Positions 8,606 to 23,576 of a DNA stretch of 64,000 nucleotides are shown piece after piece (within the stretch, counting starts at the first letter, position 1; each line of letters begins with the position of its first letter). A program made the position numbers and the translations under genes. The DNA is from Nitrospirota bacterium (GTDB lineage: Bacteria; Nitrospirota; UBA9217): NCBI GenBank assembly GCA_963818475.1, contig CAWFSF010000006.1, positions 2,144,001 to 2,208,000 of the forward strand, in the 5' to 3' direction. The notes under the pieces are model-generated. The model saw nothing but the letters and a program-made list of their open reading frames with translations, was not told where the DNA came from and searched no databases.

Positions 8606-10015
8606 TGTACTCCCAAAATGATAATGTCCTATTCTCCCAAAGTAGAAATGTCCTATTCTAAGTTACAATACCCTGATGTAATTGGAGGGTACTGTGACAG
8701 AAATGGACATGATCACTATGAGCAGGAGAGAAACAAAAAGACTGCACATTATCCACCAAGCATTGGATAAAAGGATCACGCAGAAGACAGCTGCTGAACT
8801 TGTAGGCTTGAGCAGCAGGCAGATTCGACGGATACTCAAACGAGTACGGAAGGAGGGAGACGACGGCATCAGTCACCGATCCCGCGGCAAAACCTCGAAT
8901 CGTCGATTCCCTCAGAAGGCAAAAGACAAGGCACTCAAGCTGTATCGGGAGAAATACAGTGATTTTGGCCCCACCTTTGCCTGCGAGAAGCTTCTTGATG
9001 TTCATGAAATCAAGCTAAGCGACGAAACCCTCCGTCTATGGCTTAATCAGGAAAGCATCCCTTACGAGAAGCGCAAGGGTAGAAAGCACCGGCAATGGCG
9101 CGAGAGGAAGCATCATTTTGGTGAAATGCTCCAGATGGATGGCTCCCATCATGCCTGGTTCGAAGGCCGGGGTCCTGAGAGCGTATTAATGGGATATATC
9201 GATGATGCCACAGGAACGGTGTATGGGCGCTTTTATGATTATGAGGGGACCATGCCAGCCATGGATAGCTTCAAGCGGTATATCAAGCGCTACGGCATTC
9301 CACAGAGTGTCTATTTGGACAAGCACTCAACGTATAAATCCAATGCCAAGCAGAGCATCGAGGATGAGTTGGAAGATAGAAAACCCATGAGCCAGTTCGA
9401 AAGGAGTCTAACCGAACTCGGGGTAACGGTCATCCATGCGAATTCACCCCAGGCAAAAGGCAGGATAGAAAGAAGTTTTCGAACGCTCCAGGATCGATTG
9501 GTTAAAGAGATGAGGCTTGCCAGGGTAAACAGTGTTGTGCAGGCAAACGAATTCCTGATAAAGTATCATCCAATATACAATGCGAAATTCAAGGTAAAAC
9601 CCGTTTCTGCAGCCGATGTACACCAACGCGCGCTATCCATAAGGGAACTCGACAAGATCTTCTGCATTCGAGAGGAGCGTACGCTACGGAACGATTTCAC
9701 CATAGCTTATAATGGCAAACTGTACCAGATCAAAGACGCTATAAAGACTCAAAAGGTCGCAGTGGAAGAACGACTCGATGGATCTCTGCATATCACTCAC
9801 AGGGGCTTGGAATTAACATATCGGGAGATCAAAACACGGCCAGCGAAAGAAAACCCTAAAACACCGGCAGTCAATAAGAAACCGACAAGTCGGTATCAAC
9901 CATCAGATCATCCATGGAAGAGACTCCGCAGAGCAAATGTACAATTTCCAATTGCTTCCTAAAAGCGGACATTTCTATCTTGGTAAGAGTAGGACATTTC
10001 TACTTTGGGTTGACA
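8606..10015 (+). mobile_element. IS1202-family (ISNCY-annotated) insertion sequence, 1410 bp, 16-bp target duplication
   Basis: Left end TGTACTCCCAAAATGATAATGTCCTA; right end (rc) TGTCAACCCAAAGTAGAAATGTCCTA; each end has a second internal copy; TTAAGCTGTTTGAGTG duplicated at 8590-8605 and 10016-10031. Confidence 0.9.
8694..9962 (+). CDS. DDE transposase (IS1202/ISNCY type)
   Basis: N-terminal HTH; QMDGS, YIDDATG, YLDKHS, PQAKGRIERSFRTLQDRL; GGAGG before GTG 8694. Confidence 0.92.
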   Translation: MTEMDMITMSRRETKRLHIIHQALDKRITQKTAAELVGLSSRQIRRILKRVRKEGDDGISHRSRGKTSNRRFPQKAKDKALKLYREKYSDFGPTFACEKLLDVHEIKLSDETLRLWLNQESIPYEKRKGRKHRQWRERKHHFGEMLQMDGSHHAWFEGRGPESVLMGYIDDATGTVYGRFYDYEGTMPAMDSFKRYIKRYGIPQSVYLDKHSTYKSNAKQSIEDELEDRKPMSQFERSLTELGVTVIHANSPQAKGRIERSFRTLQDRLVKEMRLARVNSVVQANEFLIKYHPIYNAKFKVKPVSAADVHQRALSIRELDKIFCIREERTLRNDFTIAYNGKLYQIKDAIKTQKVAVEERLDGSLHITHRGLELTYREIKTRPAKENPKTPAVNKKPTSRYQPSDHPWKRLRRANVQFPIAS

Positions 10016-10815: not shown

Positions 10816-11709
10816 ATGGACATTCACCAGCTTCAGGTATTCCTCTCGGTCTACCGCAACAAAAGCTTTTCCCTTGCCGCCAGGGAGCTGCATCTCACGC
10901 AGCCCTCGGTCAGCATCCATGTGAAAAAGCTTGAGGAAGAGCTGGGAATAAAGCTCTTCGACCGGGTAGGCAGAAGAACGATCCCCACCAAGGAAGGCAG
11001 CCTCCTGTATACCAGGGCCGGTGAGATCGTTGAACAGCTGAAGGACATCAGGACCGACCTATCGTCCTCAGAAAAGGAGGTCAAAGGGCTTTTGAACATC
11101 GGCGCCACGAGCATCCCCGGCTCCTACGTGGTCCCGCCTCTGGCAGCAGAATTCAGCAAACGCTATCCCGAGGTCTTCTTCCAGGTCACCATCGACGGCA
11201 CGAAGGAGATCGTTGACAAGGTCGCCGGCGGAGAACTGCTGCTCGGGATCGTGGGTGACCTGAAGAGCGCGAAGGATGTCGAGCGCGTCCACTCCTTCCG
11301 GGATGAGCTCGTGCTCGTGGCCGCGCCGGGCCTTATCTGGAACAAGGAGATCTCGCCGCTCAAGCTTTTCACGCTGCCGCTCCTCATGCGTGAGGAGGAG
11401 TCGGATTCGCGCAAGAGCATGGAGCAGCACCATTTCCTGCACCGCATCAGCCTCAAAGCGTTGAACATCAAGGCCATCCTGGGCTCCACGGACTCGCTGC
11501 GGGAAGCGGTAAAATCGGGGCTCGGGGCCTCCATTTTGTCGCGCTTCGTGATCAAGGATGACCTCAAGGCAGGCCGCGTCGAGGAGATCCGCATCAAGGG
11601 AGTGAAGATGAAGCGGCTTTTGTACGTCATCACGAACAAAAAGCGCGCCCTCCCCGAGCACTACCGCGCATTCGTACAGTTCCTTACAGAAAAGCTTCCG
11701 AAAGCCTGA
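10816..11709 (+). CDS. LysR-family regulator (CysL / selenium-metabolism-associated type)
   Basis: HTH SFSLAARELHLTQPSVS..LEEELGIKLFDR; GATSIPG; MREE.S; LGSTDSLREAV. Confidence 0.9.
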   Translation: MDIHQLQVFLSVYRNKSFSLAARELHLTQPSVSIHVKKLEEELGIKLFDRVGRRTIPTKEGSLLYTRAGEIVEQLKDIRTDLSSSEKEVKGLLNIGATSIPGSYVVPPLAAEFSKRYPEVFFQVTIDGTKEIVDKVAGGELLLGIVGDLKSAKDVERVHSFRDELVLVAAPGLIWNKEISPLKLFTLPLLMREEESDSRKSMEQHHFLHRISLKALNIKAILGSTDSLREAVKSGLGASILSRFVIKDDLKAGRVEEIRIKGVKMKRLLYVITNKKRALPEHYRAFVQFLTEKLPKA

Positions 11710-11928
11710 ATCCATTCACTCCTTTTCGAATCGGATAAAGAAGAAATTATCGCCAGCTGCATATGCTCTTTTTCTCTAAAAAGGTGATACTATTGTGATT
11801 ATCAGGATAAAATCGCTGCAATCTTGTACGCTGCACTACTCAGCCTATTCACCAGTTGGATTAGAGAAAATCCGGAATTACCCGGTGTCTCCCCGTTTTC
11901 GCGCCTGCGGGAGAAGAGAATTTAATAA

Positions 11929-12072
11929 TGATGATCCCGTAAGAAATCTCCCAAGCCGTCATTGCGAGGAGCGAAGCGACGCGGCAATCTCGTTTTTCCG
12001 ATCAGTTACTAACTGCGAGATTGCTTCGCTATGATCGCAAAGACGGCTTTTCAGGCTTATTACGAATCGTCA
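11929..12072. repeat. nested palindromic element (GTCATTGCGAGGAGCGAAGCGAC type inside an outer TGATG..CGTAA IR)
   Basis: AAGCCGTCATTGCGA ... TCGCAAAGACGGCTT; inner GCAATCTCG/CGAGATTGC; outer TGATGATCCCGTAA ... TTACGAATCGTCA. Confidence 0.75.
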
Positions 12073-12095
12073 ATAATGTACGGTAATTGCGTTCA

Positions 12096-12722
12096 ATGGA
12101 CAGTACATCTTTCTTAAAAGGGCTGGCTATAGGTTTCGTGATCGCCGCACCCCTGGGGCCCATCGGCATACTATGCGCGCGACGGACGCTGACGCACGGG
12201 CGGCGAGCAGGTTTCTACTCCGGCATGGGCGCATCGACGGCAGACGTGCTCTACGGCTTTATCGCTGCCTTCGGACTTACGTTCTTATCTGACTTTCTCT
12301 CCAGCTATCAGTTCTGGTTCAGGCTTGCAGGCGGAGCGATCTTGTGCTTCCTCGGCGTCAAAACATTCACTGAACATCCGCCGGAGAGCAACGACGTTCC
12401 TTCACCATTGAACAAGGAAAGACGTCACACCAAAATGTATAGCTCCACGTTCCTCCTTACACTGACGAATCCCATGACCATCCTTTCTTTGGCCGCGGTC
12501 TTTGCCGGGTTCGGGATCACCGGCACCAGAGGGAGTGTCCTCTCCGCGGCAGTTCTGATTCTGGGAGTATTTCTGGGCTCAGTGCTCTGGTGGCTGTTTC
12601 TTGTCGGGGTGTTCAGTGTCTTCAAGCGACGCTTCAAACGGCACGAATTGCTGTGGATCAACAGGATCGCGGGCCTGATCATTACGATCTCCGGCGTGTT
12701 GGCGCTCATCAGCCTGTTATAA
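12096..12722 (+). CDS. LysE/RhtB family translocator
   Basis: IAAPLGPIG, G.GASTAD, LTLTNPMTI, about 6 TM helices. Confidence 0.88.
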   Translation: MDSTSFLKGLAIGFVIAAPLGPIGILCARRTLTHGRRAGFYSGMGASTADVLYGFIAAFGLTFLSDFLSSYQFWFRLAGGAILCFLGVKTFTEHPPESNDVPSPLNKERRHTKMYSSTFLLTLTNPMTILSLAAVFAGFGITGTRGSVLSAAVLILGVFLGSVLWWLFLVGVFSVFKRRFKRHELLWINRIAGLIITISGVLALISLL

Positions 12723-12888
12723 TGCAATTGCGGAGCACCGTATCGCGGGAACGTTTCAACTGTTTAATTCCGTTAGGATGGCAGTGTATCGCCAGGACCT
12801 ATAAATTTTACACCCATCTTCCCGCCCACTCTATAAAGAACAACAATTAGACTTCCCCCTGCATATGCTTTATGGTAATCATGCAATT

Positions 12889-13023
12889 TTGATGGACTCG
12901 CAATAATTCGGATTTTAACCGCGGAGACGCTGAGACGCAGAGAAAGTCTTTAATATTTCAAGGTGCCTTCCTCTGCGCCTCCGCGTCTCGGCGGTGGATA
13001 ATGACTTTTTACGAATGTATCAA
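12889..13023. repeat. nested palindromic element (9-nt CGCGGAGA-type arms inside an outer TTGATG..CGCAA / TTACGAA..TCAA IR)
   Basis: AACCGCGGAGACGCTGAGACGCAGAG ... CTCTGCGCCTCCGCGTCTCGGCGGT. Confidence 0.8.
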
Positions 13024-13085
13024 TTTTGTTGGGATAGCTTCCCGGTCTCAGGAAAAACTACTTTTTTTCATCTCTGGGAGGAACA

Positions 13086-13190
13086 ATGCTCTATCGTCTC
13101 GTAGTAACGCTGCGTATCGCAAAAGCTGTGGTCATCGGTATTCTGACCCTCGGTCTTGTGATCTCGGCATCACTGTTGTTCGCTGCGTAG
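13086..13190 (+). CDS. small hydrophobic peptide, 34 aa (MLYRLVVTLRIAKAVVIGILTLGLVISASLLFAA)
   Basis: GGGAGG SD 4 nt before ATG; single TM segment; TAG at 13188-13190, 34 nt before the methyltransferase. Confidence 0.55.
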   Translation: MLYRLVVTLRIAKAVVIGILTLGLVISASLLFAA

Positions 13191-13224
13191 CTTTAAGGAA
13201 TTAAGCCAAGGGGGGAGTAAGACT

Positions 13225-14025
13225 GTGAAGAGGATCGACGTAACGCTGAAAGAGGTAAGGGGAGTATATTCAGGTCCTGAAGGGCAGCTCTGGGAAATGA
13301 TCATGGGCGAGCAGATCCACGTAGGCGGATTCGCGTCATCCATGGCGCTGGCGCAGAAGGCCGGGATCAGGGAAGGCCAGAAGGTCCTCGATCTCTGCAG
13401 CGCGCTCGGTGCTGGCTTGCGGTTCCTGGTCAAAAACTTCAAGGTGCAGGGCTACGGCCTTGATGCCACGCAGCACATGGTCGAAGAAGCCGACAGGCGC
13501 TGCAAACGCGACGGCATGGACGGGTCCATCGAAATGAAACTGGGCGACGTTACCAGTATTCCCTGGGACGCGTCCACTTTTGATGTTGTCTGGGGCGAGG
13601 ATGCATGGTGCTATGTGACTGACAAGGACAGGCAGATCGCCGAGGCTGCACGGGTGCTCAAAAAGGGAGGCACCATTGCTTTTACCGACTGGGTGGAGGG
13701 TCCCAAAGGCCTGATCGACGTTGATGCTGAACGCATCGAACGCTTCATGAAATTCCCCTACATGGAAAGCCAAAAAGGATATGAAGCGCTGCTCAAGAAG
13801 CACGGCTTTACCGTGACCGTATCGGAAGATCTTACACCTGACTTCGCTGACCACATCCAGCTCTACATCGACATGCTCACCAAGCAGCTCACCTTCGACG
13901 CCCTGCGCATCATCAACTGGGACATGAACCTGATGCAGGCCATGGGCGGAGAGATGATGTTCATGCTCGAAAAGGCGCGCGCGGGAAATTTCGGCAGGAC
14001 CAGGATCGTGGCTGTAAAGGGATAG
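13225..14025 (+). CDS. class I SAM-dependent methyltransferase (sarcosine/dimethylglycine N-MT-like fold)
   Basis: GEQIHVG, VLDLCSALGAG, GLDAT, FDVVWGEDAW, RVLKKGG; SD GGGGGAG before GTG. Confidence 0.85.
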   Translation: MKRIDVTLKEVRGVYSGPEGQLWEMIMGEQIHVGGFASSMALAQKAGIREGQKVLDLCSALGAGLRFLVKNFKVQGYGLDATQHMVEEADRRCKRDGMDGSIEMKLGDVTSIPWDASTFDVVWGEDAWCYVTDKDRQIAEAARVLKKGGTIAFTDWVEGPKGLIDVDAERIERFMKFPYMESQKGYEALLKKHGFTVTVSEDLTPDFADHIQLYIDMLTKQLTFDALRIINWDMNLMQAMGGEMMFMLEKARAGNFGRTRIVAVKG

Positions 14026-14059
14026 TATCCGCACAAGGAACGCGTGTAAACACTGACCA

Positions 14060-14143
14060 CCCTCTCCCACCCCCTCCATCAAGGGAGGGGCATATTTTAT
14101 TAAGTAATCCTCTCCCCTCGCGGGAGAGGGCTGGGTGAGGGGG
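14060..14143. repeat. CCCTCTCCC-type REP-like double hairpin
   Basis: CCCCTCCATCAAGGGAGGGG and CCTCTCCCCTCGCGGGAGAGGG..GGGTGAGGGGG. Confidence 0.7.
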
Positions 14144-14189
14144 AATGTTTTCTATAACAGGACCCTTCTTAACAGGAGCACGTTGGCGC

Positions 14190-14218
14190 TTGCATCCAAT
14201 GATGGACTACCGTATATT
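14190..14218 (+). promoter_or_regulatory. putative sigma70 promoter giving a leaderless transcript
   Basis: TTGCAT-N17-TATATT ending 5 nt before ATG 14224; no SD. Confidence 0.45.
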
Positions 14219-14223
14219 ATCCC

Positions 14224-15327
14224 ATGCGCAAAGCATCCTTGATCCGTACAGCCTGTGACGCAAAGCATATCGCAGAACTCGAAGCGCTCCGTCAGCACCG
14301 GTCATCAGGCGGGAAAGTGGCGGGATATACCTGCCATGCGTTCCCGGCCGCGGTCCTTGCCGGACTGGGCCTGTGGCCTGCACGCATCCTCTGCGACTCC
14401 TCGGCTGACGCTGAAAGCGCAGGCGAAAAGGTGGTCCGACCGGACGTCTGTCCCCTGGTCAAGACCCTGCTCGGGAACGTTGCGGAAAAGCGAGGGCTCC
14501 ATGCCCAGGTGGACCTTTGGATCGGCCTTTCGACCTGCGACCAGATGCGCCGGGGCATGCACAGCCTTTCCGAACATCTTGCCTGCGAAGTGCACCCCAT
14601 CCAACTCCCCGCGACCCGAACACCGGAATCGGCAGACTACTACGTTGATCAGGTAAAGCGGGTTGCGGCAGACATCGAAACGCGCCACGGGCTGAGCTTT
14701 GACGCGAACGCAGCAGAACAATGGCATCGGGACCGTTACAAAGCAGCAGCAGTTCTCTCCCTGGCTGCCCGGTCAGGCAGGGTATCTCCACTCGATTTGC
14801 ACAACATGTTCCATGTCTTCTTCATGGCCCGGCCGAAAGGGCTGGCAGAATTCTTTTCCGGGCTGATCGCATCATCCAGGCCGTTTGAGGGAACAAAGAC
14901 CGTGGTACTCAGCGGCGGACCGCTCACTCGTGAGGACACAGCGCTACTCGAAGAGCTGGAAGAACGGGGCTATACCGTGCTTCCGCTCAACTGCACCGGT
15001 TTGAACGCCGTAGAGAGCGAAGGTCAAACGCGGGCGGGCAAAAATCTGATCGAATCGCTGGCCCTTGCAGCCTTTGGCATGCCAACCTGCACCAGGTCGC
15101 GGCCGAATACTGCTGTCTACACCCGGATCGGTGAGACGCTCAAAACATCGGGAGCAACCGGCCTGATCGTCAAGACCCTCAAGTTCTGCGACCACTGGTA
15201 CACGGAGCGCGAACGGCTGCGCAGGTCCTTTGGCGTGCCGGTGCTGGTCTTTGACTCGGATTACGCAGAAGGCGGACGGGAACGGATCTTGAGCAGGATC
15301 GATGCGTTTCTGGAAACACTGGAGTAA
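14224..15327 (+). CDS. 2-hydroxyacyl-CoA dehydratase family Fe-S subunit (HgdB/BzdN-like)
   Basis: GYTCHAFP, VCPLVK, STCDQMRR, KFCDHW, DSDY..RILSRIDAFLE. Confidence 0.8.
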   Translation: MRKASLIRTACDAKHIAELEALRQHRSSGGKVAGYTCHAFPAAVLAGLGLWPARILCDSSADAESAGEKVVRPDVCPLVKTLLGNVAEKRGLHAQVDLWIGLSTCDQMRRGMHSLSEHLACEVHPIQLPATRTPESADYYVDQVKRVAADIETRHGLSFDANAAEQWHRDRYKAAAVLSLAARSGRVSPLDLHNMFHVFFMARPKGLAEFFSGLIASSRPFEGTKTVVLSGGPLTREDTALLEELEERGYTVLPLNCTGLNAVESEGQTRAGKNLIESLALAAFGMPTCTRSRPNTAVYTRIGETLKTSGATGLIVKTLKFCDHWYTERERLRRSFGVPVLVFDSDYAEGGRERILSRIDAFLETLE

Positions 15328-15335
15328 AAACAGTT

Positions 15336-15532
15336 AACCACGGAGTCACGGAGGCACGGAGGAAAGCTGAGAGAATCAAAAGCTTTAAGCTTTTGTTTTA
15401 AAACCAAGGCTAAGGCTCTTGACCCTCTCAGCCTCAACGCCGTTCTCCGTGCCTCCGTGTCTCCGTGGTGAAAAAGGTTTGCGTTTGTTCAGGGTTTTGA
15501 TCTTCTCTGTGTCTCTGTGCCTCTGTGGTGAA
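15336..15532. repeat. palindromic element with 9-nt CACGGAG arms plus an extra right arm
   Basis: ACCACGGAGTCACGGAGGCACGGAG ... CTCCGTGCCTCCGTGTCTCCGTGGT and CTCTGTGTCTCTGTGCCTCTGTGGTGAA. Confidence 0.85.
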
Positions 15533-15539
15533 GGCCTTT

Positions 15540-18140
15540 ATGTTCAACGAAGTAAAAAAAATAAGCGTCATGGAATGGGAAGAGCGCATGCCGCAGGTAC
15601 CCGAAGCGTACCGGCAGCAGTGCACGGTCCTGCGCTCCCTCGTGCCCGGCGGCGTCCGCTACCTATTCAGCCCCTACGAATATTCCTGCCGTGGCGATAC
15701 GCTTCTGAGACGGCTCAAGTTCGACTCATCGCTCGCAGCACTCCGGCTCTGGGCCTTTATCTTCAGCGAAAAGGACCGATTGTTCCTTGCCAAGGAAAAA
15801 GGCTGGAAGATCTTTGCCGCCATGAAGGACCTTGGCCCTGTGCCGGTGCTGTCCTATGCCGTACCCGAGTCCATCACCTTTTATGCTGACGAATTGTGGT
15901 GGGCGCCCTGCTTTGCCGAAGAATCGCATCTTCTGGACGAAGCAGCCAGGCTTGGTGCAGGCGACGAACTCTGCTTTGTGCGCGCTGCGCTCGGTGCCAT
16001 GAAGACGCTGGACTACTTCCCTGCGCCGGACCTTTGTATTGCCGGTGTAGGCGCCTGCTGTGACGACTTCTCCGCGGTCATGCAGCTTATCGAGGCCGAG
16101 GGCTACGCAACCCATTGGTGGGAGATGGCTGAGCGCTTTGATCCATCGACGGCGATCATCACGGAAAAGTTTCTGCACACGTCTGCAGGGAGTTCCCCAT
16201 ACTTGGAGTCAGCCCGGATCTTTGTGGCAACCCAGCTTAAGGGCGTGGTGCGCAGATTGGAAGAAGTGAGCGGAAAAACGATCACCGAAGCCATGCTCAG
16301 GAAGAGCCGCGACCAATCCAACGCGATCAGGAGCCGCATAAGCGAGCTGCGCGACCTCGTCTATGGCGCGAAACAGCCGCCCTTGCCCGGGCTTGAGATG
16401 CTGCTTGCGGAGTTCATTGCTCCCCATGCCTGTTCCGATCCTGATGAAGCTGTTGCGGTCCTTGACGAGCTTTTGAAGACCGTGCGCGACAGGCTTGCAA
16501 AGAAGCTCTCCCCGCTCTCAGCCGACCCCTTGCGGGTCTTCTGGGCAACTCCTCCCACGGACGCTGCGCTCATCAACCTGCTCGAAGACCTGGGCGGCTG
16601 CATTGCCGGCACCGAGTACATGATCAGCCATTCCTTTCTTAAGATCGCTGAGAACATATCCGTCATCGACGCGGTTGCCGAGAACTGCATGGACGATCCC
16701 ATGACCGGCTCGGCAGCCTTCCGCGCCAGACGGATCATTGAAGGAGCAAAAAAATACGGGGCCGAAGGCATCATCATCTCAGGCATCTCGGGAGCCAGCC
16801 ACTGCGCTTTTGACGAGACCGCTATTACTGCCGCAGTCGAGACCGAACTGAACATCCCGGTGCTCTCGTTCGACGTACCTTATTCACCCGGCAGGCTGAA
16901 CGAACAGGTGGTAACGCGGATGCAGGGCTTTATGGAACTCCTGCGCCAGCGGAGAAATCCATCAGGCTCGATCACGAGCATGCCGCTTGTTGATCAGCGC
17001 AGCAAACACGACGAGAGCCCCTCGGAATATTTCAGAAATTCCATGTCGCGCGAAGTGGACCTGGTGCGCGACGCCAAACGGTTGGGTAAAGGCGTGGTCG
17101 GCATTTACTGCGAGTTCACGCCGCGCGAACTGATCCTGGCTGCGAATGCCGTCCCGGTCTGCCTCTGCGGAGCCAGCAACCGCACCATCCCGCCGGCAGA
17201 GACCGTGCTCCCCTCCAACCTCTGCCCGCTGATTAAATCCTCGTTCGGCTACATCCTGACGAACCGCTGCCCTTTTTACCTCGTCACCGATCTGATCGTG
17301 GCAGAAACGACCTGCGACGGGAAAAAGAAGATGTACGAGCTGATCGCGGACAAGAAGCCCGTGCATATTCTGGAGTTGACCCAGAAAGTGAACGAAGAAG
17401 AGGCCTTCTCCCATTGGCGCTCGGAAGTCGAAAAACTGAAAAAGAAGCTTGAGACCACGTTCAAGATCACGATCGCCGAAAAAGACCTGAGGAACGCGAT
17501 CAAGGCGATGAACCACGAGCGCGAACTCCTGCGTGAGGCCTTTGCTCTGGGCAAGGAAGACCCGGCCATTGTGACCGGCAAGGAGCTCGCCGATCTCAGG
17601 TACCGCGTGGCCGGAGAACCGGGCCATCTGCGCATGCTCGAGGCCTTCATTGCCGAGGCACAGCAGCGAAAAAAGGCGGGCAAGTTCGTTGCAAAGAAAG
17701 GCGCGCCCCGGATCCTGATGACCGGCTGCCCCACTGCCCAGGAGACGACCAAGCTCATTGAAGTGATCGAAGAATGCGGCGCCATTGTCGTGGTACAGGA
17801 AACCTGTTCAGGCGTCAAGCCGCTGGAGGTGCAGGTTGAAGAAACCGGCGACCCGATCGAAGCCATTGCACGCAAATACTTCCAGCTCCCCTGCTCCTGC
17901 ATGACGCCCAATCTGGGCAGGACTGAGCTTATCGAAAAGCTGTCAAAGGAATACAAGGTGAATGCAGTGGTCGATCTTGTGTGGCAGGCCTGCCATACGT
18001 ACAATGTAGAGTCCTATCTGATAGACAAGTTCGTGCGCGAAAAGCTCGGCATGCCTTATATGAAGGTGGAGACGGATTATTCGGATTCGGACCGGGAACG
18101 GATCAAAGTCCGAATACAGACGTTGGTGGAGATGCTGTAG
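15540..18140 (+). CDS. two-domain HAD-family Fe-S protein: divergent dehydratase-like domain fused to a double-cubane-cluster reductase (DCCP/YjiM-like) domain
   Basis: N domain LCFVRA, GACCDDF, ASHC, TRMQGFME; C domain GIYCEFTP, VCLCG, LPSNLCPLIKSS, ETTCDGKKK, MTGCP, ETCSG, PCSCMTPN, ACHTY. Confidence 0.8.
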   Translation: MFNEVKKISVMEWEERMPQVPEAYRQQCTVLRSLVPGGVRYLFSPYEYSCRGDTLLRRLKFDSSLAALRLWAFIFSEKDRLFLAKEKGWKIFAAMKDLGPVPVLSYAVPESITFYADELWWAPCFAEESHLLDEAARLGAGDELCFVRAALGAMKTLDYFPAPDLCIAGVGACCDDFSAVMQLIEAEGYATHWWEMAERFDPSTAIITEKFLHTSAGSSPYLESARIFVATQLKGVVRRLEEVSGKTITEAMLRKSRDQSNAIRSRISELRDLVYGAKQPPLPGLEMLLAEFIAPHACSDPDEAVAVLDELLKTVRDRLAKKLSPLSADPLRVFWATPPTDAALINLLEDLGGCIAGTEYMISHSFLKIAENISVIDAVAENCMDDPMTGSAAFRARRIIEGAKKYGAEGIIISGISGASHCAFDETAITAAVETELNIPVLSFDVPYSPGRLNEQVVTRMQGFMELLRQRRNPSGSITSMPLVDQRSKHDESPSEYFRNSMSREVDLVRDAKRLGKGVVGIYCEFTPRELILAANAVPVCLCGASNRTIPPAETVLPSNLCPLIKSSFGYILTNRCPFYLVTDLIVAETTCDGKKKMYELIADKKPVHILELTQKVNEEEAFSHWRSEVEKLKKKLETTFKITIAEKDLRNAIKAMNHERELLREAFALGKEDPAIVTGKELADLRYRVAGEPGHLRMLEAFIAEAQQRKKAGKFVAKKGAPRILMTGCPTAQETTKLIEVIEECGAIVVVQETCSGVKPLEVQVEETGDPIEAIARKYFQLPCSCMTPNLGRTELIEKLSKEYKVNAVVDLVWQACHTYNVESYLIDKFVREKLGMPYMKVETDYSDSDRERIKVRIQTLVEML

Positions 18141-18148
18141 GGACATTT

Positions 18149-18315
18149 TTCACGCGGAGACGCGGAGTTTGCGGAGACAAGCAACGCATTTACCTCACGC
18201 AAAGATCGCTCTGAAAGTTAAGTCATTTGATTCTAAGGCCAGCGCCTAATGTTTCCTTTGCGAGAGGCCGCTTTTAATATCTTTTTTCTCCGCGTCCTCC
18301 GCGCCTCCGCGAGAG
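18149..18315. repeat. nested palindromic element, 9-nt CGCGGAG arms
   Basis: CACGCGGAGACGCGGAGTTTGCGGAG ... CTCCGCGTCCTCCGCGCCTCCGCGAGAG, with inner CTCACGCAAAG/CTTTGCGAGAG. Confidence 0.8.
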
Positions 18316-18334
18316 ACAGCTTTGAGGTTAAATC

Positions 18335-19111
18335 ATGGTCACCGCAGGTGTTGACATAGGCTCCCGATCCATCGAGATCGTCCTGACCGACGGCGCGCAG
18401 GTCATCGAAGCGCTCACCACGAACTCAGGCTCCGCTCCCACGGAGAACGCGAGGAAGGCCTTCGCCGACGCCCTTGCTTCCGCCGGCATCAAACGGCAGG
18501 AGGTGGTCAAGGTCATTGCGACCGGCTACGGCAGGAACTATTTCCCCGAAGCCGACGCGGTCTCGTCGGAGATCCTCTGTCATGCCCGGGGCGTGGCATA
18601 TCTGTTCCCGAACGCCCGCACCGTGATCGACATCGGAGGACAGGATTCGAAAATGATCAGCCTTGACGGCAATGGCAAGGTGTCCAACTTTGTCATGAAC
18701 GACCGTTGCGCAGCCGGTACCGGAAAGTTCATCGAGATGGTCGGGCTCATGCTCGACGTGCCGCTTGACCGCATGGGTCCGCTCACGGATACATCCCCAG
18801 AAGCCTGCGAGATATCGTCCATGTGCGCGGTCTTCGCCGAATCGGAGATCATCGGCCTGACCCAGAGCGGTACGGCCGTTGATGTGGTGCTGCGCGGAGT
18901 GTTTCGGTCCGTGGCGCGCAGAACGCTTGCCATGACCGGAAAGGTCGGCCTGGTGAAGGATGTTGTCTTTACCGGAGGAGTGGCAAGGAACGCCGGTGTT
19001 GTGCGGGCTTTGGAGCATGAGACCGGCATGCGGTTGTCCATCCCGCCTGACCCGCAGATTACCGGAGCACTGGGCGCAGCATTGGTGGCCGCGGATAAGG
19101 CAAAGGCATGA
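18335..19111 (+). CDS. ATP-dependent acyl-CoA dehydratase/reductase activator (HgdC/BadF/YjiL-like)
   Basis: GVDIGS, ATGYGR, DIGGQDSK, MNDRCAAGTG, SSMCAVFAESE, FTGGVA. Confidence 0.92.
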   Translation: MVTAGVDIGSRSIEIVLTDGAQVIEALTTNSGSAPTENARKAFADALASAGIKRQEVVKVIATGYGRNYFPEADAVSSEILCHARGVAYLFPNARTVIDIGGQDSKMISLDGNGKVSNFVMNDRCAAGTGKFIEMVGLMLDVPLDRMGPLTDTSPEACEISSMCAVFAESEIIGLTQSGTAVDVVLRGVFRSVARRTLAMTGKVGLVKDVVFTGGVARNAGVVRALEHETGMRLSIPPDPQITGALGAALVAADKAKA

Positions 19112-19188
19112 TCTGAAGTTTTAAGCTCCTGCATTACACGCCCTCGCATGACTCCTCAGCGTCAAAGGTTATTTGCCTTTTTCTCGGA

Positions 19189-20430
19189 TCACAAAAACTC
19201 CTCATAGTAGTCCAGATCCTTATGGAACGTCTCTTCCAGAAAGGCCAGAGCGATGAACGCGGCGATCACGCAGATGGCGCCGACGGCAAGTGCACCGCCT
19301 TCCAGGCCCAGGTACTGGCGGAATAGCTGGAACAGCAGCGTGATGGGCACCACCATGCCGCGCACGAAATTGGGCACGGTCGTGGCGACCGTGGCGCGCA
19401 GGTTCGTGCCGAACTGCTCTGCCGCAACGGTCACGAAGATGGCCCAGTAGCCGCCGGCAAAACCGAGCACGAGGCACACGCCGTAGAAGAATGCAGGACT
19501 CCTGCTCCCTTGCAGAAAGTAAAGGGCGATGGCTGCCATGGTCAGGAGAATGAACAGGAGGACCACCTTTTTCCTGCTCTTCAGCACCTGGCTCAGAAGG
19601 CCGCTCGAAAGATCTCCGAAGACCAGCCCGAGGTAGCAGAACATGACCGCGTTCCCCGCGGAGACGGGCCCGGTCGTGCCGAATGTTTTGGCGAATTCCG
19701 GCGAAAAGGTGATCAGGATAGCGACGACGAACCAGATGGGGACGCCGATCAGGATCGAGTTAAGATAACGGAAAAACCGTTTGCGGTCCGAAAAGAGCGC
19801 AAGCAGGTTGCCCCTGCTGATGCGGGATTTCTTGTTCATGGCGCGGAACATGCCCGACTCGGCCACACTGATACGCGCAATGAGCAGCAGGAGGCCGAGC
19901 ACGCCTCCGATGATGAATGCGTTCCGCCAATCATAGCTTTTCGCGATAATGTTCGCGAGTATGGCGCCGGAAACGCCCACCGAGGCCACGAGCATGGTGC
20001 CGTAACCCCTGACGCTGGTATGCAGGACCTCGGCTACCAGGGTAATGCCCGCCCCCAGCTCTCCTGCCAGGCCGATACCGGCGATGAAGCGCAGGGTTGC
20101 GTAGGCGGGAAGAGAGGAGGCCATGCCGTTCGCGATGTTTGCAATGGAATACAGAAAAATGGATCCGAACATGATCTTGAGCCGTCCCTTGCGGTCGCCC
20201 AGCACGCCCCAGATGATCCCGCCGATCAACATGCCGGCCATCTGCATATTCAGAAGAAATACGCCGTAGTCGGTCACATCCCTGCCGGTCAAACCAAGCG
20301 ACTGGAGGCTCGGCACGCGAACGATGCTGAACAGTACCAGGTCGTAGATGTCCACGAAATAACCGAGGGCCGCGACAATGACGGGCAGGCTGAAGATATG
20401 GCGGAAATGACCACCGGCTTTCTGCTCCAC
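19189..20430 (-). CDS. MFS transporter
   Basis: LGYFVDIYD, motif A GVLGDRKGR, AAEQFGTNLRAT; GGAGG before GTG 20430. Confidence 0.88.
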   Translation of the reverse strand: MEQKAGGHFRHIFSLPVIVAALGYFVDIYDLVLFSIVRVPSLQSLGLTGRDVTDYGVFLLNMQMAGMLIGGIIWGVLGDRKGRLKIMFGSIFLYSIANIANGMASSLPAYATLRFIAGIGLAGELGAGITLVAEVLHTSVRGYGTMLVASVGVSGAILANIIAKSYDWRNAFIIGGVLGLLLLIARISVAESGMFRAMNKKSRISRGNLLALFSDRKRFFRYLNSILIGVPIWFVVAILITFSPEFAKTFGTTGPVSAGNAVMFCYLGLVFGDLSSGLLSQVLKSRKKVVLLFILLTMAAIALYFLQGSRSPAFFYGVCLVLGFAGGYWAIFVTVAAEQFGTNLRATVATTVPNFVRGMVVPITLLFQLFRQYLGLEGGALAVGAICVIAAFIALAFLEETFHKDLDYYEEFL

Positions 20431-20605
20431 AAGATCCTCCAAAGTATTCGGGGTTAAAAAAGAATGCTCAGCCAATGCATGGCTGAGCATTGCTCAGGAC
20501 TGTATCAGAATTTTGTCCATCCTGCAACTGAATGTAAAAATCCGGCAGCTGAGCCAAAAAGCTCTTGAACGGGTTGGAGTTCGCGGCAGGTAAGCAGTCA
20601 CCCTT

Positions 20606-20992
20606 TTACAGAAGATAGGGTTTGATAAGGGTATAAGCTGTCAGGCTGATACTGATGGCAGCGGTCGCCCAGAGTATGATCTTGTTCTTTCGCGGCACCA
20701 CGCAGCCGGCGTGATAGGTCTTGTAGAACGAATATGCCAGCAGGCTGGTGGTGGTCGCAACGAAGTACCAGCGGTAATGCGCCATCCAGCTTCCGATCGC
20801 TACGCTGCCCAGGCCAAGACCGGCCAGGATAATATTGATGTTTCAGACGAGGAAGCCCATGAAGGCGGACGAGACAGCGCCGGTGCCTGCGGCCGTGGTT
20901 TTTCCCAGGCCCCTGGGCTTCATGTCGAGGCGGCACATGGGGCCCTGCGGCTCGGTGGCACTTTTTTGCATCGTGATCTTCATCGGTTCCAT
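20606..20992 (-). CDS. MerT-like metal transport membrane protein with in-frame TGA (probable selenoprotein), 128 aa
   Basis: Frame continues open after TGA 20843-20845: AFMGFLV-U-NINIILAGLGLGSVAIGSWMAHYRWYF..YKTY..KNKIILW to TAA 20606-20608; hairpin GGCC-GGTCTT-GGCC with its loop 21 nt after UGA; SD GGGAG. Confidence 0.72.
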
Positions 20993-21052
20993 GGGCATTC
21001 TCCCTGTCAGTATCAAGTGATCTTTAATAACTGCAACCTGCCATTCCCGCAC

Positions 21053-21081
21053 ATAGTAACCAAATCATCCTTTTCTGTCAA
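21053..21081 (-). promoter_or_regulatory. near-consensus sigma70 promoter of the MerT-like gene
   Basis: TTGACA-N17-TACTAT on the minus strand. Confidence 0.6.
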
Positions 21082-21113
21082 TATGAACCATCGGACGGGT
21101 GCCACCTCCTCGC

Positions 21114-21142
21114 TTGATTTTCCCGAACATTTGCGTTATGCT
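21114..21142 (+). promoter_or_regulatory. putative sigma70 promoter of the oxidase operon
   Basis: TTGATT-N17-TATGCT. Confidence 0.45.
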
Positions 21143-21203
21143 TTCACTACGTTGCCTGAGCAAGCTTCCCACACCTTGCAATAATCATTCGGAGATCGAC
21201 GTC

Positions 21204-21989
21204 ATGCGCGGATCATTTCTGGTACTTCCCCTGCTGCTCTTTCTGGCGCCACCGGCGTTCGGCCACGAGACCACCGCGACCTCCGCAGACATTGCGCTTG
21301 ACGATAAGCTCGGACAATACATTCCCGCAGATGCGAACTTTTACGACGAGAGCGGCACCCAGGTGAACCTCAGGACCATGATCGACAAGCCCACGATCAT
21401 CGCGCCGGTCTATCTGGGCTGCATGCATGAATGCCCCATGCTTCTGACCGGCCTTGCCGGGGTGCTCGGCAAACTCGAAATGATCCAGCCGGGCAGGGAT
21501 TTCAAGGTCATCACGCTCAGCTTCGATGACAAGGACACGCCGGCCATAGCCCTCGACAAAAAAAGAAATTACCTCAAGGCCATCGGCAAGCCCTTCCCTC
21601 CGCAGGACTGGCCGTTTTTGACCGGCGACAGCGAGAGCATTAAAAAGTTCACCGATGCCATCGGCTTCAAATTCCAGCGGGACAGCGAACATGATTTTTC
21701 CCATCCCATCACGCTCGTGGTCATCGCACCCGGCGGCAAGATCGTCCGCTACCTCGAGGGAACCAGCTTCCTCCCTTTTGATGTGACCATGGCCGTGAAC
21801 GAGGCCGCCGAGGGCAAGGTCAGCTCTGCAGGACGGCGGGTGCTCATGTACTGCTTCAGCTACGACCCGCTTAAGAAATCCTATGTGTTCAATATCCTGA
21901 AAGTGGTCGGGACGGCAATGGTCCTCTTTGTCGGATCCTTCTTTGCGTACTTGATGATCACGACAAAGAAGAAACGAGGATCGGCATAA
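21204..21989 (+). CDS. SCO1/SenC copper chaperone
   Basis: Signal peptide; YLGCMHECP (CxxxC); FSHP His; LMYCFSYDP; C-terminal TM. Confidence 0.88.
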
Positions 21990-21990
21990 G

Positions 21991-23576
<1,586 letters not shown>

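Follow-up and report, generated by a model that had tools for sequence, protein, structure and literature searches.

A MerT-like membrane protein with a single predicted selenocysteine beside a selenium-linked methyltransferase and double-cubane reductase cassette in Nitrospirota

Selenocysteine (Sec) is rare in transporters. One neighbourhood relevant to the present locus, Tso (TsoR, NF045707; TsoA, NF045695; MbdU, NF045648), has reportedly been described by Haft and Tolstoy in 2025. In the relay model proposed for MerT, Hg(II) passes from Cys24/25 to Cys76/82 (PMC5715351). Selenoproteins of the MerT family with a Cys-Sec (CU) motif have already been published (10.1101/2022.07.06.499078), and a 'putative mercuric transport protein' with a C/SxxU motif is tabulated as a selenoprotein (PMC13188914, PMC9312934, PMC1976440). 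The SAO system comprises a selenoprotein ABC importer, SaoP/SaoB, linked to double-cubane proteins, which in turn track selD (10.1101/2022.07.06.499078); a link between double-cubane proteins and selenium is also given in PMC10418091, and the physiological role of these enzymes is stated as unknown (PMC9351452).

The window analysed here is the whole stretch of 64,000 nucleotides (positions 2,144,001 to 2,208,000 of contig CAWFSF010000006.1) from the Nitrospirota assembly GCA_963818475.1, a genome 91% complete (G000); a second genome of the same genus, G001, is 65% complete. On the minus strand, an open reading frame begins with ATG at 20992, runs for 49 codons to a TGA at 20845-20843 (codon 50) and continues for 78 sense codons to TAA at 20608-20606 (Table 1). 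The promoter, Shine-Dalgarno sequence, ATG (20992), TGA (20843-20845), 78 following codons and hairpin that an earlier, sequence-only reading had placed here were all recovered at these positions. Two promoter-like sites were found in the interval 19000-21400 against 1.1 +/- 0.7 in shuffled sequences, an excess that is weak taken alone. The terminator-like hairpin between the gene and the neighbouring MFS gene suggests that the selenoprotein gene may have a short transcript of its own.

Table 1. Positions in the window of the predicted selenoprotein gene, its signals and the linked cassette
Feature	Position	Strand	Basis or remark
128-aa MerT-like membrane selenoprotein CDS	20606..20992	(-)	translation with in-frame TGA read through
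UGA read as Sec50, aligned with the second Cys of the MerT TM1 pair	20843..20845	(-)	alignment, profile comparison
Cys20, tail cysteine conserved within the lone-Sec clade (G-P-x-C-like); possible partner ligand	20933..20935	(-)	role inferred
Cys97, helix 2-3 loop cysteine; matching MerT region holds the cytoplasmic Cys pair	20702..20704	(-)	alignment
Shine-Dalgarno-like GGGAG	20999..21004	(-)	sequence inspection
Sigma-70-like promoter TTGACA-17-TACTAT	21053..21081	(-)	10/12 consensus match; kept in G001
Terminator-like hairpin (12 pairs, T run) separating the gene from the MFS gene	20463..20491	(-)	consensus match
SECIS-type hairpin, invariant GU in apical loop 21-22 nt past UGA	20809..20828	(-)	folding, consensus
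Selenium metabolism-associated LysR (NF040786)	10816..11709	(+)	265.6 bits, cut-off 250; upstream of linked cassette
Class I SAM methyltransferase of the linked cassette	13225..14025	(+)	domain search
Three HGD-D / double-cubane-type Fe-S modules (367 aa; 871 aa fusion)	14224..18140	(+)	third module NF040772, 449.7 vs cut-off 350
ATP-dependent activase (BcrAD/BadFG)	18335..19111	(+)	TIGR00241 over cut-off

Judged from the conservation of the codon and its context, insertion of selenocysteine at UGA50 is close to certain. A profile search of 401 Nitrospirota genomes returned 18 matches, ten of which were strong (E <= 4.3e-21, five families) and carry TGA at the codon-50 column without exception, while the eight weak ones consist of seven ordinary Cys-Cys MerT-family proteins and one spurious match. 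A metagenome pattern search that permitted TGA, TGC, TGT or TGG at this column yielded 36 loci, 35 with TGA and one with TGC; since the pattern had fixed hairpin bases, Cys versions without the hairpin would escape it, and the loci include several near-copies and the contig of genome G011 (L064, taken out of the counts). The sole TGC locus (L068) meets a stop about 15 codons further on and was rejected as a family member. Protein searches, which are free of the hairpin bias, returned no close Cys version of the family. The sequence-only reading, which had proposed a hidden MerT-like selenoprotein with one Sec, is supported by these counts, and TGA stands throughout the strong homologues at the column where the second Cys of the MerT relatives' CC pair aligns. 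In protein databases, three N-terminal fragments each end at residue 49, and 48 of 49 profile hits are fragments of 51-80 aa that begin after the UGA, the 49th being a distant Cys-Cys MerT. A single-sequence word-index search gave no match and a scan of genome contigs only G001, because the databases contain fragments or the patterns had a Cys at the position of the UGA. What the databases hold as a gene split in two at the UGA is very likely to encode one 128-residue Sec protein related to MerT.

The loop of the hairpin (GGUCUU) begins 21 nt after the UGA, and in the minimum free energy fold (-10.8 kcal/mol) a GUCU loop lies at 22 nt; this satisfies the bSECIS consensus as given in the available part of PMC13188914 (loop of 3-9 nt, G within the first two loop positions, 16-37 nt after UGA, MFE <= -7.5). 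The ten genome loci came from a protein-profile search; all have GCC at codon +7 (a choice that makes up 37% of the Ala codons of G000) and either GGT or AGT at codon +8 (G000 usage 16% and 7%, respectively), so that the GU of the loop survives a Gly/Ser change. Codons +6 to +12 have a synonymous identity of 0.64, compared with 0.40 in the rest of the gene (pairs non-independent), and a strict SECIS hairpin test was passed by eight of the ten loci as opposed to 19 of 937 ordinary TGA stops of G000; covariation within the hairpin is slight, with a compensatory change at one of seven pairs. The Sec machinery that the sequence-only reading had asked after is present in G000: selA and selD score over their cut-offs, tRNA-Sec reaches 63.2 bits (cut-off 47), and selB lies directly after selA in frameshifted pieces, no single one of which is over the cut-off. 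The selD gene, located 23 kb before the window, has an in-frame TGA of its own and is likewise frameshifted in the assembly. Frameshifts split four genes of G000, selA, selB, selD and coxI (G000:C6:1736434-1739563 and 2120012-2120939; window 22076-23576), and are probably long-read indel errors of the assembly. The presence of selA in 10/10 carriers is weak evidence because 55/64 genomes of the family have it.

By sequence, the relation to MerT is real and distant, as the sequence-only reading had judged by eye. The window protein matches NF033560 with E 2.5e-8 and 34.2 bits against a cut-off of 130, has no Pfam hit and stays below every MerT cut-off (PF02411, NF010314, NF033560). Compared with an annotated plasmid MerT, the family profile aligns at 96% probability (E 2.2e-9), placing the UGA at the second of the two adjacent cysteines; profile matches to MerT range from 96 to 99% probability, and the three-helix membrane architecture is homologous to that of MerT. 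Both are small three-helix membrane proteins with a chalcogen in TM1 where the CC pair has its second Cys, a Y-R/K-x-x-F opening helix 2, a K-x-x-L-W opening helix 3 and a loop Cys. The window protein differs from MerT, however, in having Sec for Cys25, no Cys24 and Asn where the CCxxP motif has Pro, in its shorter loop (with one Cys or none in the clade, where MerT has a cytoplasmic pair), in an extra tail with a conserved Cys, and in the lack of merR, merP and merA beside the gene. The CU and C/SxxU selenoproteins, as far as their published accounts were available, likewise carry Sec in TM1, whereas the motif of the window clade is x-U-N plus a tail Cys and its neighbourhood is another one. 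Nor does the protein, which at 128 aa ends after helix 3, resemble the MerT/CopZ fusion-like selenoproteins: NF045683 gave no hit at E<=0.001, and no CopZ domain was found in the 44 read-through sequences. Fitting no published MerT-selenoprotein motif and no MerT cut-off, it is therefore described here as MerT-like in fold and is not filed as MerT.

An AlphaFold2 model of the 128-aa protein is of moderate quality (mean pLDDT 67.8, pTM 0.43; an earlier structure model was poorer, with pLDDT 56.8) and predicts a disordered basic tail (residues 1-33), a kinked TM1 made of helices 34-50 and 52-69, and helices 74-94 and 101-127, of which helix 2 is weakly hydrophobic. In this model, Sec50 sits where the two TM1 helices break, and the N-terminal tail with Cys20 is a region of low confidence. 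Searches with the model against solved structures and folds gave no informative match, the top one (VIA, Z 7.5) being a helical hairpin at background level. Tail and TM2-TM3 loop are rich in basic residues; the distribution of positive charge suggests a MerT-like topology, in which both segments, with their two cysteines, would lie on the inside.

The 44 read-through sequences fall into two types, 24 with a lone Sec (without vicinal Cys) and 20 with Cys-Sec. A Cys placed 17-32 residues upstream of Sec, in the tail, occurs in 22/24 lone-Sec sequences versus 0/20 Cys-Sec sequences (2/20 if the open frame ahead of the chosen start is included), and the loop Cys at the position of Cys97 is kept in 16 of the 22 full-length lone-Sec sequences. 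The tree, built from 50 rows and 96 columns with a midpoint root and without the partial or damaged L053, L067, L069, L075 and L076, places the Sec family on one side of a 97/97 branch, with 21 lone-Sec rows as a 97/94 clade among Cys-Sec rows. Tree and alignment together show that in this clade the vicinal Cys disappeared and another arose in the basic tail. The window protein, with V49-U50 in TM1, has no Cys-Sec dipeptide; the earlier description, 'no partner Cys in TM1', is right for TM1, and the conserved Cys20 outside it, often joined in the clade by a loop Cys such as Cys97, is to be added. In the available parts of the literature consulted on Sec transporters, no ligand arrangement is listed in which one Sec within the membrane is combined with a distant Cys in the tail. 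The literature search likewise returned no description of the lone-Sec clade or of its link to the cassette described below; Haft and Tolstoy 2025 and the bioRxiv supplements lay outside its scope and may cover them.

The two types also differ in their surroundings. The Cys-Sec group is found mostly in TsoR/TsoA/MbdU operons, in several loci between TsoA and MbdU, and in one locus beside an ArsP-type permease, TsoR itself being of ArsR type; Cys-Sec sequences recovered here may be the published CU group, as far as that account was available. The Tso operon houses the sister group, and the lone-Sec clade of the window stands outside it. Some of these operons (L038:6958-10100, L039:6344-9736 and L041:7551-9526) contain up to five predicted selenoproteins, their members being TsoR, a redoxin with HWU, TsoA, the Cys-Sec MerT-like protein, MbdU (two UGA) and a DF-family or AhpD-like UGA gene.

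On the side away from SCO, the window contains an uncharacterised selenium-linked cassette (10816-19111, plus strand) consisting of LysR_Sec_metab, a LysE-type exporter, the methyltransferase, three double-cubane-type modules and the activase, which ends 1.5 kb from the selenoprotein gene; the latter is convergent to the cassette and lies behind the MFS gene with its own promoter-like site. The cassette is rare in the phylum (3-4/401 genomes). Its methyltransferase was found at E<=1e-40 in 4/401 genomes, all four of them carriers of the selenoprotein gene, and the second reductase module in 3/401, with the selenoprotein gene adjacent in each. In G056 the gene follows the activase by 8 bp on the same strand, and in G011 it lies between LysR, directly upstream, and the methyltransferase, about 190 bp away and on the same strand. 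Among metagenome loci, activase/HGD genes stand beside the gene in 6/17 of the lone-Sec type versus 0/17 of the Cys-Sec type, with activase orthologues 72-78% identical; 11/17 lone-Sec loci are without a cassette gene, eight of them under 3.4 kb and three of 6-16 kb. Genome G003 (71% complete) keeps cox and the MFS gene, has no cassette at the locus, its MFS gene being joined directly to lysE, and has no more of the selenoprotein gene than its final 20 codons. At that locus (L014:817-1620), about 690 bp of different sequence stands in place of the promoter and codons 1-108, and the 20 codons left are 95% identical. The early-branching carriers G381 (96% complete) and G158 (99%) gave neither a methyltransferase nor a double-cubane hit, and in G001 the methyltransferase is followed by other genes, the reductase orthologue not being found; a double-cubane hit in that genome was rejected as a paralogue (37% identical). 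Overall, the cassette is a recurring neighbour across genera and families, but the link is not obligatory, and it rests on few cases, three genomes with adjacency and one co-loss.

Further features of the cassette were recorded. In G001 (L114 / L043:2462-3796) the order is LysR, a peptide, the methyltransferase and then, by eye, secreted-looking and solute-symporter-like proteins. A hydrophobic 34-aa ORF with a ribosome-binding site lies just before the methyltransferase in the window (13086-13190, plus strand) and is conserved in G001 and G011 and not seen in G056; a Cys-x-UGA leader before the methyltransferase was not seen in the four loci examined. The printed seven-Cys double-cubane spacing has no exact match in any module; module 3 is nevertheless over its HMM cut-off. 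Short intergenic repeats (about 12884-13030, 14057-14150 and 15430-15530), present in dozens of copies in genomes of the genus, are probably REP/MITE-like elements, and a transposase-like ORF, identified by eye, lies upstream of LysR (8682-9959, plus strand).

The arrangement recalls the SAO system, in which a Sec-bearing membrane transport protein also stands beside NF040772 double-cubane reductases and an activase in anaerobes; SAO, however, has an ABC permease fold and a nine-gene locus, unlike the single small gene of MerT fold in the window (10.1101/2022.07.06.499078). SaoP (NF040733) was over its cut-off in none of the five carriers tested. The resemblance, as far as the available part of that account allows comparison, is to be seen as an analogy of design and not as membership.

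Members without the cassette are often found by YedF, rhodaneses or LysR_Sec_metab, and others by TsoR/TsoA/MbdU. G158 has YedF upstream of the gene, L049 has cytochrome c assembly genes downstream, and in G381 (L036:8034-9608, minus strand) two rhodanese domains, a polyketide-cyclase-like domain and a lone-Sec MerT domain form a 525-aa fusion. A third kind of context is seen in L047 and L078, whose close lone-Sec homologues lie behind an acyl carrier protein gene and a ketoacyl synthase gene. The MFS gene was rejected as a fixed partner, both G003 and G005 having it without the selenoprotein gene.

Two readings that would remove the selenium chemistry or redirect it to respiration agree poorly with these distributions. 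That the UGA is a true stop (of a pseudogene or between two small ORFs), an assembly error or a Trp codon is extremely improbable. The assembly does contain many frameshifts, including those in selA, selB and selD, and one database homologue of the Cys-Sec sister group, the singleton P0016, has Trp at the column; but selA is intact in 9/9 other carriers, and P0016 is sister to a TGA-bearing locus, and its Trp is therefore probably a gene-caller reading, judging from the protein record. Despite the frameshifts, an error at the TGA itself is unlikely because the codon recurs in relatives that share 29-92% identity, and TGA at this column spans five families of the phylum; this support outside the G000 assembly comes from contigs of relatives, among them a related public-run contig in which none of the differences listed falls at 20843-20845. 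Both sides of the UGA evolve in coding fashion, with synonymous/non-synonymous changes relative to G001 of 11/6 before and 20/4 after it, and third-position shares of the differences listed for the public-run contig of 9/12 and 10/10, respectively. No start codon downstream of the UGA is conserved in the alignment, and TGA is an ordinary stop in G000, where it ends 937 of 1906 long ORFs. Very improbable, too, is a Cu(I) carrier for SCO and cytochrome c oxidase assembly, the direction in which the sequence-only reading, with its inference of Cu or other soft-metal handling, had leaned from the divergent position. Selenolate is a good Cu(I) ligand, and the gene does stand back-to-back with SCO in G000, as that reading had seen, as well as in G001 and one related run contig; however, among 25 SCO loci fetched (from 52 matches in 50 of the 64 family genomes), only two have the gene within their flank, both of one genus, and an SCO orthologue occurs in 50/64 family genomes versus the selenoprotein gene in 4/64. 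None of the 36 metagenome loci, which are mostly short, gave an SCO/COX hit; among the carriers, COX1 found no match in G381 and G158, and no SCO orthologue reached E<=1e-40 in G011. G003 lost the gene while keeping cox. The copper reading is largely refuted by this distribution: the cox linkage is local to one genus, and what recurs beside the gene is the cassette at its other flank, overlooked by the earlier reading. What stands of the earlier interpretation is a MerT-like selenoprotein that has a lone Sec without a vicinal Cys and is not part of a mer operon; the SCO/cox/copper part is not supported.

A stand-alone MerT-like binder or importer of soft metals (Hg, Ag, As), with selenolate for higher affinity and a cassette adjacency brought about by selenium islands, in which selenoprotein genes tend to gather regardless of function, is rather unlikely; in a variant, it might supply Hg(II) for methylation in hgcA-bearing hosts. 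Kinship to MerT agrees with it, as do the Cys-Sec relatives in ArsR-type (TsoR) operons with the metal-binding selenoprotein MbdU, once beside an ArsP-type permease, and hgcA scores over its cut-off in G000 (C5:566714-567505), G001, G011 and G056. On the other hand, the absence of nearby mer genes noted earlier extends to the whole of G000 (91% complete), where none of MerA, MerP and MerR passes its cut-off and PF02411 gives no hit, and MerA is over its cut-off in only 2/11 genomes, both of the Cys-Sec type. Co-occurrence with hgcA was rejected as uninformative (7/11 genomes versus 53/64 in the family); hgcA does not track the gene, because 53/64 family genomes have it and 4/10 carriers are without it. 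Distinctly unlikely is a membrane-anchored redox relay, in which a Sec50/Cys20 selenenylsulfide cycle would pass electrons or persulfide/perselenide with no metal moved. It would suit a tail Cys that is present exactly in the clade without the vicinal one, and the rhodanese fusion of G381, the YedF gene of G158 and the cytochrome c assembly genes of L049, but a thioredoxin-like motif is missing from the protein, its tail Cys lies at a variable spacing of 18 to 31 residues, and the fold is that of a metal carrier.

Our best guess, held tentatively and at a little short of even chances, is a Sec/Cys membrane relay for selenium or metalloid species that serves the cassette. The intramembrane selenolate would bind soft, thiophilic species and pass them on towards the cytoplasm, where Cys20 and/or Cys97 would receive them, as in the Hg(II) relay of MerT. 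The cargo, to judge from the context, may be a selenium oxyanion, selenide or a related metalloid species, and the protein would either supply it to the SAM methyltransferase and the ATP-driven double-cubane reductase behind the selenium-associated LysR or carry it away from them. The protein would then be an accessory carrier of a selenium-linked reduction/methylation pathway, and not a mercury-resistance or copper-delivery protein. The narrower proposal of a dedicated selenium or metalloid carrier, in which a covalent selenolate adduct passes to the replacement tail Cys and on to the ATP-driven double-cubane reductase and the methyltransferase, is unlikely.

The selenoprotein clade added by this finding is well supported, is cut at the UGA by gene callers and has no Pfam or NCBIfam model. 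Its hosts are anaerobic Nitrospirota, many of them also with the mercury-methylation gene hgcA. If the dedicated-carrier proposal were true, the protein would be a specific prokaryotic selenium carrier, of which, according to the available part of a 2026 review, none has been identified so far (PMC13188914), and it would give a handle on the physiological substrate of double-cubane enzymes, stated as unknown in what was available of PMC9351452. Small and easily expressed, it offers a means of asking what double-cubane reductases and the methyltransferase do with selenium or metalloids.
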